A DNA stretch of 64,000 nucleotides. Source: Candidatus Cloacimonadales bacterium. GTDB taxonomy: Bacteria; Cloacimonadota; Cloacimonadia; Cloacimonadales; DAONDQ01. Location of the stretch: positions 864,001 to 928,000 of the forward strand of contig OY759316.1 in assembly GCA_963662275.1 (NCBI GenBank). The letters run 5' to 3'. Shown here in pieces: positions 45,181 through 64,000 of this stretch (the first letter of the stretch is position 1; each line of letters begins with the position of its first letter). The notes beneath the pieces are model-generated. The model was not told the origin of the DNA, ran no database searches, and was given only the letters and a program-made list of their open reading frames with translations. The translations under genes and the position numbers were made by a program.

Positions 45181-45274
45181 AAAATTCTGGAAGGATGAAA
45201 GATAATAGCCCATAGCGTGAGCTATGGGAAACGATCCCCCCATGTACCATTAGAACCCCGGCAGGGGTGACATA
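45181..45274. repeat. REP-like palindromic element, same family as 60547-60612 in opposite orientation
   Basis: Hairpins cccatagc-gtga-gctatggg and acccc-ggca-ggggt. Confidence 0.75.
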
Positions 45275-57282: not shown

Positions 57283-57711
57283 TGTGATTTTTATTTCTTT
57301 AATTTGTTTCTTTGAAAAGTAAAGAAGGATAGAATTTTGAATAATGAGACATGAATTGGGAAAATATTAGGACTTTGAAGCAAAATTCATGAAGCTCTAC
57401 GAGCATATTTATTGGCTGTAATTGATACGAGAAGTCCTAAGGAAACAAATCCTACTATTCGTTCACAAATAACAACAATAATACCCCAAGTAGATAAAGT
57501 GATGGTTGGTCGAATACCTAAATTTGTAAAAGATATAGAATGAAACATAAATCCAAGTCAAAAATGAATAATATTCTAAATGAGAGCCACTTGTACGGAG
57601 TTTTAGAGCCACGTCTTCGCTAAAATAGAGCCACCTTGCTATTTTGAAAGAAAAAACCAACATGAATTAATGCACTGTATCAGTGTAAATCAATTCATGG
57701 AGGTCAATGCA

Positions 57712-59256
57712 ATGACCAATTACCGAGAGATCCTTCGCTTACACAGCCAGGGAATAAGCAGACGAGGCATAGCGGCGAGTTTATCCTGTTCCCGCAATAA
57801 CGTGTCGATGATCATTCAAAGGGCAACAGACCAGAGCCTTGAATGGCCGCTTCCTGATACATTAACAAATGAGATGATCGAAGAGCAGCTCTTTCCGGCT
57901 TACTTATCGTCAAACCCGCAGAAGATGCCTGATTATGAACACATACACAAGGAACTTGCCAAGAGTGGTGTAACACTGTCGCTACTCTGGCATGAATACT
58001 CTGAGGGATGCAGGAATAATCAGGCTATTCCCTACAAGTATACGCAATTTTGCAAACATTACCATGATTACTCACAAAAGACAAAAGCAACCATGCGAAT
58101 AAAACACAAACCAGGAGAAAAGCTGGAAGTGGACTGGGCTGGACAGACTGCCGCCATCAAAAACAACATTACCGGTGAACCGATCAAAGCCTATGTTTTT
58201 GTAGCAACCCTCCCGTACAGTGGTTATTCCTATGTGGAAGCCTTTCTTTCCATGAATATGGAAAGCTGGATTCAGGCTCATATAAATAGCTTCAAGTACT
58301 TTAATGGAGTTACTAAAATACTTGTTCCTGATAATCTTAAGACGGGAGTTGACCATGTGTCGTGGTATACTCCCGTTATCAACAGAACCTATGGAGAAAT
58401 GTCTGCTTATTACGATACTGCGGTAATACCTGCCAGAGTTAGAAGACCAAAGGATAAGCCCAGTGCAGAAGGCACAGTTGGAGTCATCTCAACCTGGATC
58501 ATTGCTGCCTTGCGAAACCAGACATTCTTTTCGCTTCATGAACTCAATATGTCAATCAGGGAAAAACTGGGAGAGTTCAATACCAAGCCCTTTCAAAAGA
58601 AAGAAGGAAGCAGAGAAAGTGTCTTTCAGGCAGAAGAACAGCCCATGCTTATTCCATTGTCATTGTCGCCATATGAGCTTGCTGCCTGGTCAAAGGCAAC
58701 AGTACAGTTCAATTATCATATAAGCGTGGATAAGATGTACTATTCGGTTCCTTATGAATACATAAAATACTATGTGGATGTACGCATCACAAGCAGAGTT
58801 GTCGAGGTTTTCTATAACTCCAACAGAATCGCTTCCCATGTCAGGAAATTTGGTCATCCCGGTCAGTATCAGACACTCCCTGAACATATGCCTGAACAGC
58901 ATCAGAAATATCAGGAATGGAATGCAGAGAGGTTTATCTCCTGGGCAAAGGAAATAGGGGAACATACGATGATCGTAATTAAGTCTATTCTGGCATCCTA
59001 TCGTGTTGAACAGCAGGGATACCGTTCCTGTATGGCACTTCTGAAATCAGCTGACAGGTATTCTGTGCAGAGGCTCGAAAGTGCATGTCAAAGGGCATTA
59101 TCTTATACACCCAATCCCGGTTATAAAAATATCCAAACCATACTCAAGACGGGTTTTGATAAGATCAATAATGCGGCAGAGACTGCAAAGAATGATCCTG
59201 CTTCTGATTTTGGTATTACCAGAGGTGCAGACTACTACGGGAGGAAAAATAAATGA
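57712..59256 (+). CDS. istA: IS21 transposase
   Basis: HTH N-terminus, VDWAG, VPDNLKTGV, RPKDKPSAEG (DDE); GGAGG SD before ATG 57712. Confidence 0.95.
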   Translation: MTNYREILRLHSQGISRRGIAASLSCSRNNVSMIIQRATDQSLEWPLPDTLTNEMIEEQLFPAYLSSNPQKMPDYEHIHKELAKSGVTLSLLWHEYSEGCRNNQAIPYKYTQFCKHYHDYSQKTKATMRIKHKPGEKLEVDWAGQTAAIKNNITGEPIKAYVFVATLPYSGYSYVEAFLSMNMESWIQAHINSFKYFNGVTKILVPDNLKTGVDHVSWYTPVINRTYGEMSAYYDTAVIPARVRRPKDKPSAEGTVGVISTWIIAALRNQTFFSLHELNMSIREKLGEFNTKPFQKKEGSRESVFQAEEQPMLIPLSLSPYELAAWSKATVQFNYHISVDKMYYSVPYEYIKYYVDVRITSRVVEVFYNSNRIASHVRKFGHPGQYQTLPEHMPEQHQKYQEWNAERFISWAKEIGEHTMIVIKSILASYRVEQQGYRSCMALLKSADRYSVQRLESACQRALSYTPNPGYKNIQTILKTGFDKINNAAETAKNDPASDFGITRGADYYGRKNK

Positions 59257-59999
59257 TCAGCCAATCAACAGTCAATAAGCTTCACGAGATGCATTTGAGT
59301 GCTATGGCTGATACTTTCTGCCAGCAATTACATGATGGTGCATTTAAGGATTTGCTTTTCGAAGAACGCTTCAGTCTGCTCGTAGATGCTGAATGGGCCA
59401 GACGCAAAAATAACAGACTGCAGAGGCTAATTAAGAAGGCAAACTTGAAGTTCAGCCAGGCAAGTATTGAAGACGTAGAATATCATGATGACAGAAAGCT
59501 GGATCGATCTGAGATTATCCGTTTATCAACCTGCAGTTACATCAGCGAAAATCGGAATATAATCATTATGGGAGCATCAGGAAACGGGAAATCCTGGCTG
59601 GGTTGTGCTTTCGGGATAGCAGCCTGCCGGAACTATTATCCTGTCAGATATATACGACTTCCCGAATTGCTGGATGACCTGGCAGTTGCCAGAGGTGAAG
59701 GTATTTTTAAGAAAGTCATAAAACAATACAAGCAGATCAAACTGCTGATACTTGATGAATGGCTGCTGACACCACTCAGAGAACAAGAGGCAAGAGATCT
59801 TTTGGAGATTATCGAAGCGAGGCATCAGCACTCATCAACGATCTTCTGTTCTCAGTTCAGAACCGGAGGATGGCATGAGAAGATTGGTCAGGAAACCCTT
59901 GCCGATGCCATCCTTGACCGGATTATACACGATTCCTATCCTATTTTTATCGATGGTAAAGTGTCAATGAGAGAACGCAATGGCATTAAGAAAGAATAA
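59253..59999 (+). CDS. istB: IS21 helper AAA+ ATPase
   Basis: GASGNGKS, LLILDEW, ADAILDRIIH; ATGA overlap with istA. Confidence 0.95.
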   Translation: MISQSTVNKLHEMHLSAMADTFCQQLHDGAFKDLLFEERFSLLVDAEWARRKNNRLQRLIKKANLKFSQASIEDVEYHDDRKLDRSEIIRLSTCSYISENRNIIIMGASGNGKSWLGCAFGIAACRNYYPVRYIRLPELLDDLAVARGEGIFKKVIKQYKQIKLLILDEWLLTPLREQEARDLLEIIEARHQHSSTIFCSQFRTGGWHEKIGQETLADAILDRIIHDSYPIFIDGKVSMRERNGIKKE

Positions 60000-60358
60000 C
60001 GATAGTTAATACTTGGGATGGTACTACAACTTTCCCGGCGACGGCTGCCGCTTCGCTCGGCCTACGGCCTCACTTCACGGCAGCCGTCGCAAAAAGATTA
60101 GTTATAGCTTATTTTTTTGTATATTACCTGTATTAATTATTGAAAATAGAAGAGTGGCTCTATTTTTCCGAAGACGTGGCTCTGTTGGAGCGTACACTAT
60201 GCTCTCTCACTCCGAAATATCCAAAAAAGTCTGATGTACCAGAAATCAAAGCCTTTTCTACGATTGGAAACAGGACATAAGTCAGAGCAAATATGCAGAC
60301 TACAAATAATGATGCAATTATAATACGAGGTATTGACCAACCGCAGGCTGTTGTCAGA

Positions 60359-60430
60359 TGAATATTTCGGAGTGAGAGAGCATAGTGTACGCTCCAACAG
60401 AGCCACGTCTTCGCTAAAATAGAGTCACCT
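60359..60430 (+). mobile_element. Solo IS21 terminal fragment, inverted relative to the right end of the complete IS21
   Basis: tgaatatttcggagtgagagagcatagtgtacgctccaacagagccacgtcttcg is nearly the reverse complement of 60154-60223. Confidence 0.8.
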
Positions 60431-60546
60431 ATCTTGAAGTTCGAAGTACGAAGTACGAAGTTGCAGACCAGAGGAACGCCGAATTGATTTCGGTGGTTGT
60501 TGCATTGTTTGCAACGTTCTGAACCTGTGGTTAAACGGCGAATGAA

Positions 60547-60612
60547 TATGTCACCCTTCCAGGGTTCAACGTATATCGGGGATCGGATTCCCATAGCTTA
60601 CGCTATGGGCTA
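60547..60612. repeat. REP-like element forming the 5' exon of the group II intron
   Basis: tatgtcacccttccagggtt...cccatagc-ttac-gctatgggcta; homologous to the reverse complement of 45206-45274. Confidence 0.75.
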
Positions 60613-62482
60613 GTACGATAGTGATAGATAGAAATCGGATGGGTGCAAGTCCCATTTCAGGCTACGTCATGCCTGGTAGTCTATGTAACTGCTTCATCGT
60701 GAGATGGGGTGGGGAGTAACAAATGACGAAACAGCAGTCCGTAGGATAACGAACTCGATTCGGCAGGATACAATGTCGAGCTTGCTAGCCTTAAGCGAAG
60801 ACCAAAATCTTCTGGAATGATGCACTTCGGGTGAACCGGAGTTTCCCCCGGAAGATGGCAGACAGGCTGAGATGACGTGCAAAAGCCATGTACTGATTGT
60901 ATCAAGTGACTGGAGACGGAATGTTGTGAAGGTTTCTATCTCAAGCTATGAGACCTGCTGATGGGAAGAGACATCAGCAGGAGTCAGAGTGTTCATAGTA
61001 GCGATGATATTCAGGACACTATAACCTGAAAGTAGCGAAGGGGCACAGGAAAATGAATTTTGAAAGGAGTATTGATGGAAGATCAACGTTCATTATTGCC
61101 GAAAACGGCTAAACAAGAACGAGAAATCCCTCCGCAATGGAGTTGGGTGGAACCGTCAGTATGGTCTGACAAAATGTTGGCAGCGCTCGAAATGGGCGTC
61201 AAAGGTGGAAAATGGTTCAGTCTGATAGACAAGGTATATGCCATGGCAAACCTTGCATCAGCTTGGAAACACGTGGCATCCAACAGAGGTAGTGCCGGTA
61301 TCGACAATGTCAGCATCCAGCACTACAAAAGACATGCGCTGGCAAGATTAGTACGAACCTCCGAACTGTTGCAAAAGGAAGCGTATCAACCCAATGGAAT
61401 CAAACGTGTCTGGATAGATAAACCGGGCAGTAAGGAAAAGAGACCTTTGGGCATACCGACCGTCACGGACAGAGTAGTACAAACAGCACTGCGCAATGTA
61501 ATCGAACCGATATTTGAACAGGGATTTGCCGAACACAGTTATGGCTTTCGTCCCAAACGCGACTGCAAAGATGCTTTAAGACAAGTCGATGGACTTCTCA
61601 AGCAGGGATACGTCTTTGTTGTGGATGCAGACCTGAAAGGATACTTTGACAGTATACCGCAGGACAAGCTGATGAAGCGTGTAGGAGAAAAGATAGCAGA
61701 CGGGAAAGTTCTGAATCTTATCAATGACTATTTGAATCAAAAAGTAATGGATACAACGTCAACCTGGACACCGGAAACGGGAACACCTCAGGGAGCAGTT
61801 ATCAGTCCATTACTGGCAAACATTTATCTGAATCCTCTGGACTGGCTTATGGCAGGCAAAGGCTATAGAATGATACGCTATGCGGATGATTTTGTAGTCA
61901 TGTGTCAAAGTCGAGAGGAAGCAGAAATGGCTTTATGTACAATAGGCGAATGGGTTGAAAAAGCAGGTCTGGTTTTGCATCCTGAAAAGACTAAAATACT
62001 GGACGCAGAAACGGAAGCGGTGGAATTTTTAGGATACCACTTCTTCAAGGGTAAAAGATACCCCAGACAGAAGAGTATCAACAAGTTCAAAGACAGCATC
62101 CGTAAATGTACCGGACGCAGTAATGCCCACAGCTTACAAACCATAATAGCTAAAATCAAGCCGATTCAAAGAGGTTGGTTCGAGTATTACAAACACTGTT
62201 ACAAAACAGTCTTTCCTAACTTGGATGGCTGGGTAAGACACAGGCTACGCAGTATCCTCAGAAAGAGGAAAAAGCGCTATGGTATTGCCACAGGAAAAGA
62301 CAATATCAGGTATCCAAATTACATCTTTGATAATGCTGGGTTTTTCTCATTAACCAAAGCCCATCAGGAATTATGTCAATCTCTTAAATGAGAACTCGTT
62401 TTCTGGAGAGCCGTATGCGGGAGAACCGCACGTACGGTTCGGAGGGAGGGGAGCCAGTAATGGATTACTCCCCTACCCCTAT
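60613..62482 (+). mobile_element. Group II intron (ribozyme plus intron-encoded RT)
   Basis: Domain V gagccgtatgcgggagaaccgcacgtacggttc with an AGC triad; domain VI ending cctaccccTAT at 62482; 5' end GTACG; candidate EBS1 tagcct (60786-91) pairs with IBS1 gggcta. Confidence 0.85.
61075..62391 (+). CDS. ltrA: Group II intron reverse transcriptase/maturase lacking an endonuclease domain
   Basis: GSAGID, RPLGIPTVTDRVVQ, SYGFRP, DADLKGYFD, GTPQGAVISPLLANIYL, YADD, FLGY, maturase RGWFEYY; AAGGAG SD. Confidence 0.95.
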   Translation: MEDQRSLLPKTAKQEREIPPQWSWVEPSVWSDKMLAALEMGVKGGKWFSLIDKVYAMANLASAWKHVASNRGSAGIDNVSIQHYKRHALARLVRTSELLQKEAYQPNGIKRVWIDKPGSKEKRPLGIPTVTDRVVQTALRNVIEPIFEQGFAEHSYGFRPKRDCKDALRQVDGLLKQGYVFVVDADLKGYFDSIPQDKLMKRVGEKIADGKVLNLINDYLNQKVMDTTSTWTPETGTPQGAVISPLLANIYLNPLDWLMAGKGYRMIRYADDFVVMCQSREEAEMALCTIGEWVEKAGLVLHPEKTKILDAETEAVEFLGYHFFKGKRYPRQKSINKFKDSIRKCTGRSNAHSLQTIIAKIKPIQRGWFEYYKHCYKTVFPNLDGWVRHRLRSILRKRKKRYGIATGKDNIRYPNYIFDNAGFFSLTKAHQELCQSLK

Positions 62483-62492
62483 TGATGTGACG

Positions 62493-64000
62493 GAGATGTC
62501 CCGAAACTAAATGATAGAAAAATAGCAACTATTAAATAATTAGTTATATATCTTGACATATTGTTCTATGGTGTATTATTGCCTTTAAAAACTAAGTATA
62601 GAGAGACACTATGAATTTCAGAGAACACAACCCGGATCAGGGTACTCTTTTCGGGCTTAATATAAGCGAAAAAATACCCCCCAAACATATGGTTCGTTAT
62701 GTTAACGATATCATTGAGCAACTGGACTTATCTGAGCTATACACAAGATACTCTGATGAAGGTACACCTGCTTATCATCCCAAGATGATGTTGAAGATCA
62801 TTGTGTATGCCTATATCAATGGTATTTATACCTGTCGGAAGATAGCTAAGGCTGTTCGGGAGAACATCAATTTTATCTGGCTGGCAGGAGAACAGGAACC
62901 TGATTTCAGAACGATCAACACCTTTGCCTGGACTAAGTGTTCTGATATTCTTATTGATGTATTTTATCAGGTAGTACTGAAAGCATCATCATTAGGATAT
63001 CTTGATCTCGACACCTGTTTTGTTGACGGGACGACGATTCACGCAAATGCCGGCAAGAATTCCTACATCTGGAAAAGCAATGCGCTTCGTTATCAGGAAC
63101 TGGTCAAGACACGAGTTGAGGGATTGTTTAAAAAGATCGAGGAATATAATCAGGAAGAGCAACAGCAATATGGAACCGCTGATCTTCTTGAGCTTGGTGA
63201 GCAATTGCATGCGGTTGAATCAGAGAAAACTGCTACAGTCGCATCTGAACAGATCAGAGATAGACTGGTCTCAGCAGAAAACAAGCTGAAAGAAGCAATG
63301 TCCCGACTACAGAAAAATCATCCGTCAGATACTCGGGCTATCAAGAAAATCAAATCTCTTTTGCGCGAAATCTCCAAATCAAAGAGCAATGATATAACTA
63401 AGCTGGAGAAATATGAGCAACAGCTTGAGATAATTGGAGAAGGACGCAGCAGCACATCCAAGACTGATAATGATGCCACATTTATGCGATTGAAAAATGG
63501 ACAGCTGGCACCGGGTTATGTTGCCAGTATCGGAACTTCAGAGCAATTTGTCACAGGCATTCACTTATTCAATATCCCTAAAGAAACCGTTGAATTTCCC
63601 AATCTCATGGAGCAAATGCATGATGAATTGGGACAATATCCTACCGACGTTGTTGGAGATGCTGCCTATGGCACTGCGCTGAATTTGAATTATGCTGCTG
63701 AAAAAGAGATAACAAGCTATCTCAAGACCCAGGATTATAAGAGAGATTATCGGGACTCTCTTCTGACAGGCTTCAGCTATGATGAGGAGTATGATGAGTG
63801 GGTCTGTCAATTTAATCGGAGACTGGTCAAAATCAAGGAAGAAGAGACAGAGAAGAACGGTCCGAAACGAATCGTGAAAACCTATATATGTAATGACTGC
63901 AGAGAATGTCCTCACAATAAAAAGTGTATTCCCTACAAGGATAAAACACATAAATCACTGACCTACGATCCTCATATAGCTCCACTAAAACGTCAGACCG
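62493..64000 (+). mobile_element. IS1182-family insertion sequence, right end outside the window
   Basis: Putative left IR gagatgtcccgaaact, followed by the transposase. Confidence 0.75.
62611..64000 (+). CDS. IS1182-family DDE transposase, 3'-truncated by the window edge (absent from the ORF track)
   Basis: Translated by hand: MNFREHNPDQ...G.PAYHPKMMLKIIVYAY..GIY.CRKI...RENINFIWL...PDFRTIN...FVDGTTIHANA...SKTDNDATFMRLK...GDAAYG. Confidence 0.92.
   Translation, partial: MNFREHNPDQGTLFGLNISEKIPPKHMVRYVNDIIEQLDLSELYTRYSDEGTPAYHPKMMLKIIVYAYINGIYTCRKIAKAVRENINFIWLAGEQEPDFRTINTFAWTKCSDILIDVFYQVVLKASSLGYLDLDTCFVDGTTIHANAGKNSYIWKSNALRYQELVKTRVEGLFKKIEEYNQEEQQQYGTADLLELGEQLHAVESEKTATVASEQIRDRLVSAENKLKEAMSRLQKNHPSDTRAIKKIKSLLREISKSKSNDITKLEKYEQQLEIIGEGRSSTSKTDNDATFMRLKNGQLAPGYVASIGTSEQFVTGIHLFNIPKETVEFPNLMEQMHDELGQYPTDVVGDAAYGTALNLNYAAEKEITSYLKTQDYKRDYRDSLLTGFSYDEEYDEWVCQFNRRLVKIKEEETEKNGPKRIVKTYICNDCRECPHNKKCIPYKDKTHKSLTYDPHIAPLKRQT

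Follow-up and report, generated by a model that had tools for sequence, protein, structure and literature searches.

Class C (IIC) group II introns such as B.h.I1, GsI-IIC and the E. rectale intron combine a small ribozyme with a reverse transcriptase (RT) that carries no endonuclease, and they insert into intergenic DNA a few nucleotides after a stem-loop. In the sections on the IIC RNA that are used here, Toor et al. (2006; PMC1702495) describe it as small, with CGC as its triad, a distal stem of domain V that is shortened by 2 bp, and an epsilon-prime bulge of 11 nt that contains AGGAA; exon-binding site 1 (EBS1) pairs over 3-4 bp, EBS2 is lacking, and the 5' exon has a stem-loop at the position of intron-binding site 2 (IBS2). 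Here we describe an intact group II intron of 1870 nt (60613..62482, forward strand) from a Candidatus Cloacimonadales bacterium. It is located in a window of 64,000 nt, the whole stretch that was analysed, which represents positions 864001-928000 of a single-contig genome of 4.38 Mb with 39% G+C. While class C introns target a terminator or an attC site, this intron is found in hairpin repeats of the repetitive extragenic palindrome (REP) type, the main family of which is Acido-Lenti-1 of Rfam. We consider it likely, with a probability of roughly 80%, that it is an active, endonuclease-less, IIC-like intron which retrohomes into single-stranded DNA beside REP hairpins.

Mobile DNA can serve as a safe site for an intron, as exemplified by RmInt1, which homes into ISRm2011-2. 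Acido-Lenti-1 motifs are said to occur near group II introns, a proximity for which no explanation is given. They have been filed as small RNAs (sRNAs), with no function assigned, by Rfam and by Weinberg et al. (2010; Table 1 in PMC2864571). REP elements and their RAYT transposases (REPtrons) represent another described system, in which short hairpins with a conserved foot are multicopy and intergenic and flank, in inverted orientation, a single-copy transposase gene of the HUH/Y1 type. The tables and text portions used here from Tobes and Pareja (2006; PMC1525189) present REPs as safe repeats which are targeted by several types of mobile elements, including insertion sequences (IS). That table is the only link between introns and REPs, RAYTs or Acido-Lenti-1 which we found among the papers listed by our literature searches, and the part of Toro and Martinez-Abarca (2013; PMC3552965) that was consulted contains nothing on hairpin targets.

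A BLAST comparison of the intron with its own genome revealed six copies, the window copy included, which do not differ at all over 1871 nt (100% identity), as well as a seventh insertion which is represented by a 272-nt 5' intron fragment (98% identity). Because the perfect identity stops at its edges, the intron could be delimited, with exon 1 ending at A60612 and exon 2 starting at T62483. When the flanks of the copies at genome positions 1449060, 1482825 and 1484835 are joined, the resulting unit is laid out like its uninterrupted neighbours, GGGCTA/TCATCTTGCAT (here and below, a slash marks the insertion point). As the rejoined flanks rebuild the uninterrupted repeat unit, T62483 is assigned to the exon. 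An earlier reading, made from the window's sequence only, had proposed the same junction (60612/62483).

The intron starts with GTACG and ends with ..CCCCTAT (5' GUACG and 3' UAU in the RNA), and the unusual 5' end, which had already been pointed out in that reading, is common to seven related loci (L023, L024, L025, L029, L035, L037, L084). Domains V and VI match Rfam model RF00029 at 62406-62482 with 63.6 bits (cut-off 40). In the Rfam alignment, domain V (62408..62440, forward strand) is 33 nt long, with AGC as its triad (62409-62411) and 4 bp in the distal stem, and domain VI occupies 62443..62479 on the same strand, with A62475 as the presumed branch point. The intron codes for an RT/maturase of 438 aa with a YADD motif (61075..62391, forward strand). 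It is assigned to Pfam RVT_1 (E 7.8e-40) and GIIM (E 2.7e-17) and to NCBIfam TIGR04416 (378 bits, cut-off 300), and it is devoid of the D/En endonuclease domain. Thus, the AGC triad and the lack of an endonuclease were both read correctly at the outset. The ribozyme outside the open reading frame (ORF) has about 550 nt. In five relatives from three metagenome-assembled genomes (MAGs) of Cloacimonadales (L023, L024, L025, L029, L035) the RT ORF is interrupted at the same place by one in-frame TGA, near locus position 2518-2520, after which the frame resumes in phase; this could be due to read-through, recoding or shared decay.

The intron is preceded by hairpin H1 (60590..60609, forward strand; cccatagc-ttac-gctatggg), which ends 3 nt before the junction, corresponds to stem P1 of Acido-Lenti-1 and covaries among family members. 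The last six nucleotides of the 5' exon, GGGCTA (60607..60612), represent IBS1. Upstream of H1 is hairpin H0 (60553..60565, forward strand; ACCCT-TCC-AGGGT), which is outside the Rfam model; at its position, other copies have compensatory variants such as CCCC-TGCC-GGGG. The full repeat unit consists of three hairpins, whereas the Rfam model covers two, and compensatory changes are found in each of them. The intron splits the RF01687 model between positions 23 and 24. Behind the intron, a 3' exon remnant of 9 nt (TGATGTGAC, 62483..62491) represents the repeat linker and begins with T62483, the putative IBS3. An uninterrupted three-hairpin unit, and thus an empty target, is found at 45181..45274 on the reverse strand. 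It matches RF01687 at 45183-45228 with 45 bits (E 5.8e-7) and reads gctatgggcta/ttatc. Both the hairpin 3 nt ahead of the intron and this empty copy had been recognised in the sequence-only reading.

All seven insertions are located 3-6 nt after a hairpin, at G(Y)GYTA, and the six full copies are then followed by T, while the fragment does not extend to a 3' end. Four are found in repeat family A (CCCATAGCTNACGCTATGGGCTA), while family B (CGCCGGATTGAAATCCGAGCGTTA) holds one full copy as well as the fragment and family C (CGCCGGGCTTACGCCCGGGTGTTA) a single copy, these three families being related to one another. Family A is Acido-Lenti-1 (RF01687), for which the genome has at least 21 matches at E <=1e-3, at least 10 of them above the cut-off, with 150 of 433 first-look candidates scored. 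We also considered that the intron may carry its own hairpin along, but this is ruled out because the hairpins differ among sites and because empty copies exist. Family A forms a tandem array at genome positions 1482700-1486900 with a period of about 70 nt, and two of the intron copies occur there at a distance of 139 nt, which corresponds to two units.

A generic scan with a minimum stem length of 7 bp returned 27,838 stems from many unrelated families, so that sites were counted by family consensus searches instead (up to 4-5 substitutions, de-duplicated, with a [CT]TA tail required). This census resulted in 107 sites from six families, located on both strands and all ending with [CT]TA. Family A accounts for 32 sites, of which 4 are filled (next base at the empty ones: T in 27 cases, G in one), family B for 21 sites with 2 filled (T in 10, another base in 9) and family C for 8 sites with one filled (T in 6, C in one). 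The 14 sites of family D and the four of family A2 are all empty and all followed by T, while the 28 sites of family E, which have a perfect GGGCTA, are all empty and are followed by A, G or C but never by T. In total, 7 sites are filled and 100 are empty, 61 of these with T as next base and 39 with another base. Thus, 7 of the 68 T sites have been targeted but none of the 39 others; the one-sided hypergeometric p is about 0.04 by hand calculation, whereby the events are not independent, as two of the copies are in one array. The view that the intron uses a multicopy, intergenic, REP-like palindrome as landing pad, which was part of the sequence-only reading, is supported.

How the target is read became evident from the comparison with related introns. 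From 19 genome loci, one plasmid and 80 metagenome loci we obtained 40 non-redundant junctions. On the 3' side, most contigs of the metagenome relatives end at the intron. When the 5' portions of 12 related introns were folded to a consensus (MAFFT/RNAalifold), 60 of 92 predicted pairs showed compensatory changes, and the fold includes the stem-loop at 60780..60796 (forward strand), which had been proposed earlier on the basis of its complementarity to the exon end. Its loop, CUAGCCU, contains EBS1 (UAGCC(U), 60786-60791), and in the window copy UAGCCU forms six pairs with GGGCUA, one of them G-U. At least five contiguous pairs, counted from exon position -1, are found for 23 of 31 junctions (mean 4.8 pairs), compared to 4.2% of 922 mismatched intron/exon controls (mean 2.2). 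Eight junctions without the anchor motif and one with an exon of only 1 nt had been left out. The eight junctions that miss are L023, L025, L029 and L035, with 5 of 6 pairs and one internal mismatch, and L111, L112, L113 and L167. An EBS2 arm is absent, as no further hairpin arm separates the d-stem from the EBS1 arm in this consensus.

A stem of at least 6 bp that ends 0-9 nt upstream occurs at 30 of 34 junctions but in only 20.8% of 1020 random windows from the same loci, and for stems of at least 8 bp the values are 15 of 34 versus 4.9%. This analysis covers junctions with an exon of at least 40 nt, two head-to-tail junctions being left out. Ten of the 40 junctions end with CTA, which shows that the foot of Acido-Lenti-1 recurs as target. 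In the genomes of two relatives the target hairpin is itself multicopy, with 132 copies in one genome, where many belong to 53-nt tandem arrays, and 19 in the other, while controls with reversed patterns gave none. A third contact may be made by A60804, a candidate EBS3 that would pair with T62483: in the corresponding alignment column (198), 9 of 11 sequences combine either A with T or G with C as the first base of the 3' exon.

In three relatives, a contig from a Desulfosporosinus MAG (L030) and two metagenome contigs (L117, L167), the intron 3' end ..CCTACCCCTAT directly abuts an intron 5' end GTGCG... These head-to-tail joins could be tandem copies, circular DNA or assembly artefacts. At the joins, the domain VI hairpin and its tail look like a target for the intron itself.

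These data also bear on the proposal that insertion is untargeted and that selection keeps only the copies in harmless repeats. The repeats are neutral and most of the compatible sites are empty, which such a filter would allow, but the six identical copies must be recent, which left little time for selection to act. Moreover, the position relative to the hairpin is precise to the nucleotide, EBS1 base-pairs with the exon end, and the excess of hairpins holds across 34 junctions from many genomes, so that we find this proposal scarcely credible.

It had been suggested in the sequence-only reading that the intron is not of class IIC. In agreement with a IIC intron, it is small, lacks the EBS2 arm and is preceded by a 5'-exon stem-loop, and domain I is of the IIC type. 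The d-stem of domain I has an 11-nt bulge, AGGAUAACGAA (60743..60753, forward strand; consensus fold of the 12 introns), in the epsilon-prime region. It begins with AGG, although the literal AGGAA is not present (for the features of this bulge we relied on the relevant parts of PMC1702495 and PMC12350094). In contrast, AGC is present in place of the CGC triad, the EBS1-IBS1 pairing has 5-6 bp and not 3-4 bp, and domain V shows a single deletion relative to the Rfam consensus and a distal stem that is 1 bp and not 2 bp shorter. The Rfam model D1D4-3 reaches 31.9 bits, just under the cut-off of 32, and a D1-D4 model match was not found in the window at the gathering threshold. Among solved structures, the RT is most similar to those of IIC introns (7uim, 216 bits; GsI-IIC, 210 bits), followed by IIB (149 bits) and IIA (128 bits).

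For comparison, a published IIC intron from Mycobacterium phage Nanz197 (OQ555808; PMC12350094) has CGC, a short domain V and 135 bits with D1D4-3, and it is located after a terminator; two introns from integron attC sites also have the CGC triad. Within the phage set the most similar RT (41.6% identity, 253 bits) is that of Streptococcus phage Javan5 (L082; MK448781.1, 9161-13231). The Javan5 intron resembles the studied one in its AGC triad and its domain V of 33 nt, but it is inserted exactly at the ssb stop codon, with no hairpin upstream; it represents a gene-end homing strategy from a neighbouring RT class (Rfam D1D4-4 type).

In an IQ-TREE phylogeny with 21 rows, the studied intron belongs to a clade (10 rows, support 89/86) whose sister group is the canonical IIC clade (6 rows, 100/99), and the union of both is supported with 99/99, while the D1D4-4 class and an IIB intron are outside. 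Near-identical (L024, L029, L091-L099), partial or broken (L031, L036-L038, L086) and distant (L039, L040) sequences were omitted. With more outgroups (24 rows; L089 and L035 dropped, the ORF of L102 being broken), the studied clade (9 rows) obtains 98/98, but the tree does not settle how it branches relative to the IIC clade and to two long-branch rows. Class labels in both trees derive from features or from papers and comprise no curated references for classes A, D, E and F. The RT forms a well-supported clade of its own, which adjoins the canonical CGC clade but is outside it. The earlier class assignment is thus only partly correct: the triad, domain V and the EBS1 pairing depart from class IIC, while domain I and the closest RT matches agree with it. 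In our view the lineage is IIC-like and probably a sister of class C.

A second intron family occurs in the same genome (L090-L099) with 11 copies, an RT of 450 aa, an AGC triad and a domain V of 31 nt. Its copies directly follow classical terminators, hairpin+TTTTT(G/A)/GTTTGCCC, one example being G000:C1:857561-858583, about 6 kb before the start of the window. A 5' intron fragment that was found near a Y1 transposase gene (L061) is also a member of this terminator-sited family and thus has no bearing on the REP insertions. As this terminator-sited family also has AGC, the triad does not exclude targeting of the IIC type.

One could argue that the studied intron is an ordinary class C intron and that there is nothing new in its behaviour, since terminators, attC sites and other inverted repeats are already known as IIC targets. 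The RT matches, the type of domain I and the joint support of the two clades would agree with this, and hairpin targeting is described as a IIC hallmark in the portions of PMC4424553 and PMC1702495 considered. In addition, two of nine group II intron copies of Pseudomonas putida are REP-associated according to the table in the part of PMC1525189 cited above. However, three of the RNA characters of Toor et al. differ (triad, distal stem of domain V, EBS1-IBS1 length), and the RT clade is outside the one in which the Nanz197 intron and those from attC sites are found. Also, all seven copies and not just two of nine are in one repeat superfamily, with evidence for base-pairing, while the terminators of this genome are taken by the second intron family. 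We thus regard this explanation as unlikely. The specialisation on one structured repeat class is a property which the lineage shares with the IIC-attC introns.

The REP character of the repeats is indicated by their association with transposase genes. The genome has four strong single-copy genes for Y1 transposases (Pfam Y1_Tnp), and each of the four is flanked by its own hairpin family. Y1a (1450970-1451413) codes for 147 aa with the motifs HVH and YIQNQEEHH. On one side of this gene are two family A copies in forward orientation, one of which holds an intron copy, and on the other side four copies in reverse and then two in forward orientation. Y1d is located between two inverted copies of family D, at distances of 24 and 43 nt, while a family B copy is found 47 nt from Y1b and family E adjoins Y1e, which has one in-frame TGA. 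Because of this TGA the latter gene (G000:C1:4083540-4083900) may be dead; family E nonetheless has 28 copies. Homologs of Y1a occur in 107 of 201 sampled genomes from the phylum, with 1-7 per genome. Among 20 loci scanned in other genomes of the phylum (of 29 returned), RF01687 flanks the Y1 homolog in six, in inverted orientation on both sides in five of them (L052, L053, L054, L057, L062) and on one side in L067, and it was not found at the other 14. The YxxxQxxHH signature (Y---Q--HH) and the low copy number of Y1a fit subclass 1.2 of TnpAY1, a subclass which generally has no terminal structures according to the parts of Quentin et al. (2018; PMC6006769) used here, in which respect the Y1a repeats differ.

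As four families each flank their own single-copy, IS200-like Y1 gene, we read the repeats as REP-type, and Acido-Lenti-1-type repeats appear to behave as true REP elements, which Y1 would be expected to bind and nick. They differ from described REPtrons in the three-hairpin unit and in the foot, which is GCTA or GTTA on the 3' side of the stem (TAGC on the other strand) and not the canonical GT[AG]G. Other hairpin families of this genome have a CTAC or TTAC foot, e.g. AGCAAGAACGGCGTCTTGCT/TTAC (at least 64 copies) and GGATAGACACATGGGTCTATCC/CTAC (40 copies). There are 11 further Y1_Tnp genes which code for proteins of 212-258 aa, and these may be the RAYTs of the CTAC/TTAC-footed families.

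The sRNA classification of Acido-Lenti-1 leads to a different explanation, namely that a genuine sRNA gene is interrupted, which must be restored by splicing, and that the DNA hairpin is irrelevant. Besides the entries in Rfam and in the cited table of Weinberg et al., covariation of the stems is expected of an RNA as well. However, the repeats flank Y1 genes in inverted orientation and form tandem arrays, and they number 107 copies from six families on both strands. In this genome, Acido-Lenti-1 behaves like a DNA repeat that is targeted by an intron and an IS. Families B and C are also used by the intron, its relatives use unrelated hairpins, and the repeat copy in the window is broken further by an IS. 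An sRNA gene is thus highly improbable as the basis of the insertion pattern.

It is conceivable, but in our view rather doubtful, that the intron and the Y1 transposase are mechanistically coupled, with Y1 standing in for the missing endonuclease. The intron enters at the foot (GCTA/) of the very hairpin that Y1 is expected to bind and nick in single-stranded DNA, and Y1, or a hairpin state at the fork which is stabilised by Y1, might expose the site or supply a 3' end. If this were true, the IIC-like clade would represent a retroelement that depends on the repeats of a DNA transposon, and the occurrence of Acido-Lenti-1 motifs with group II introns would be explained.

The same repeat copy has been targeted by a second element, which starts 9 nt after the intron end, close to the distance of about 10 nt that had been noted at first. 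It is an IS1182-family transposon of 1895 nt with inverted repeat GGAGATGTCCCGAAAC (62492..64000, forward strand), the transposase ORF of which begins at 62611 (NCBIfam NF033551, 295.6 bits, cut-off 270). The element ends 386 nt past the window, and the repeat unit is continued behind it. There are 20 genomic copies, which are 98-99.7% alike and have inverted repeats that are perfect over about 20 bp. When flanks were inspected by eye, 13 of the 20 copies were found in such repeats at fixed offsets. Nine copies are integrated 9-10 nt after a hairpin followed by GYTA, four at atgtc/IS/tc(t/a)aatgg about 25 nt before H1, and seven are elsewhere or unclear. At the IS sites, the hairpin that otherwise comes after the linker is absent or incomplete, and the IS ends (GGAGAT...ATCTCC) resemble its arms. 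As the intron copies are identical while the IS copies are not, the intron burst probably occurred later than that of the IS. We conclude that the repeats are shared hotspots of the intron and the IS1182-family element, as had been suspected from this one site. An IS21-type pair, coding for istA (528 aa) and istB (248 aa), is located just upstream (57670-59999). Thus, three kinds of mobile elements and the repeat are assembled within about 3 kb.

Taken together, we favour retrohoming of an active, endonuclease-less, IIC-like intron. Its target consists, as the comparisons show, of three parts. The first is a DNA stem-loop that ends 3-6 nt upstream, the second a pairing of 5-6 bp between EBS1 and the exon end G(Y)GYTA, and the third, most likely, a single pair between the EBS3 adenine and the first T of the 3' exon. 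The hairpins are Acido-Lenti-1-type units, in this genome the REP partners of single-copy, IS200-like Y1 (HUH) transposases. By analogy to IIC and other endonuclease-less introns, a particle of lariat and RT would reverse-splice into the hairpin-bearing strand while this is single-stranded at the replication fork, and cDNA synthesis would be primed by the nascent strand. According to the GC skew, replication starts near 4.16 Mb and terminates near 1.9-2.2 Mb, and six of the seven copies are co-oriented with fork movement, which fits entry into the lagging-strand template, although this bias is not significant alone and two of the copies are in one array.

Several points weigh against this interpretation. 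Splicing, the junction, mobility and the role of the hairpin are all deduced from comparison, and none of 22 listed public runs is of RNA. Of the 68 sites with T as next base 61 are empty, so that other factors must also limit insertion. The five Cloacimonadales relatives pair at 5 of 6 positions with an internal mismatch and have a strict contiguous score of only 1-4, and 2 of the 11 sequences do not fit the candidate EBS3. Among the Y1 loci of other genomes, the share with RF01687 is low (6/20), and in NCBIfam Y1a is classed with the IS200/IS605 transposases (75.9 bits), while its RAYT score of 20 bits is far below the cut-off of 80. Finally, four public DNA runs gave no polymorphism between empty and filled sites: over 60300-64000 none of their contigs joins 60612 to 62483, so that the empty allele was not seen, and the contigs break at 60611 and 62483, with loose ends that carry the flanks of other copies. 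Intron DNA was not found in a genome of the same genus (G123, 240 contigs, 99% complete), which has little weight as repeats often remain unassembled.

For the biology of these introns, the data provide evidence at the base-pair level for a IIC-like choice of sites, by a hairpin, an EBS1 pairing of 5-6 bp and one IBS3 base, and they indicate that introns other than those with a CGC, short-domain-V ribozyme also target hairpins. Two intron families of one genome divide the hairpin niche between REPs and terminators, which is a natural experiment for the rules of retargeting. Three mobile systems, the intron, the IS1182 element and the REP repeats with their Y1 transposases, meet on one small DNA structure, and this provides a specific explanation of why group II introns and Acido-Lenti-1 occur together. 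As the repeats are numerous, intergenic and renewable, they would be harmless landing sites, and the intron may thus exemplify how a selfish element finds many such sites beside scattered hairpin repeats.

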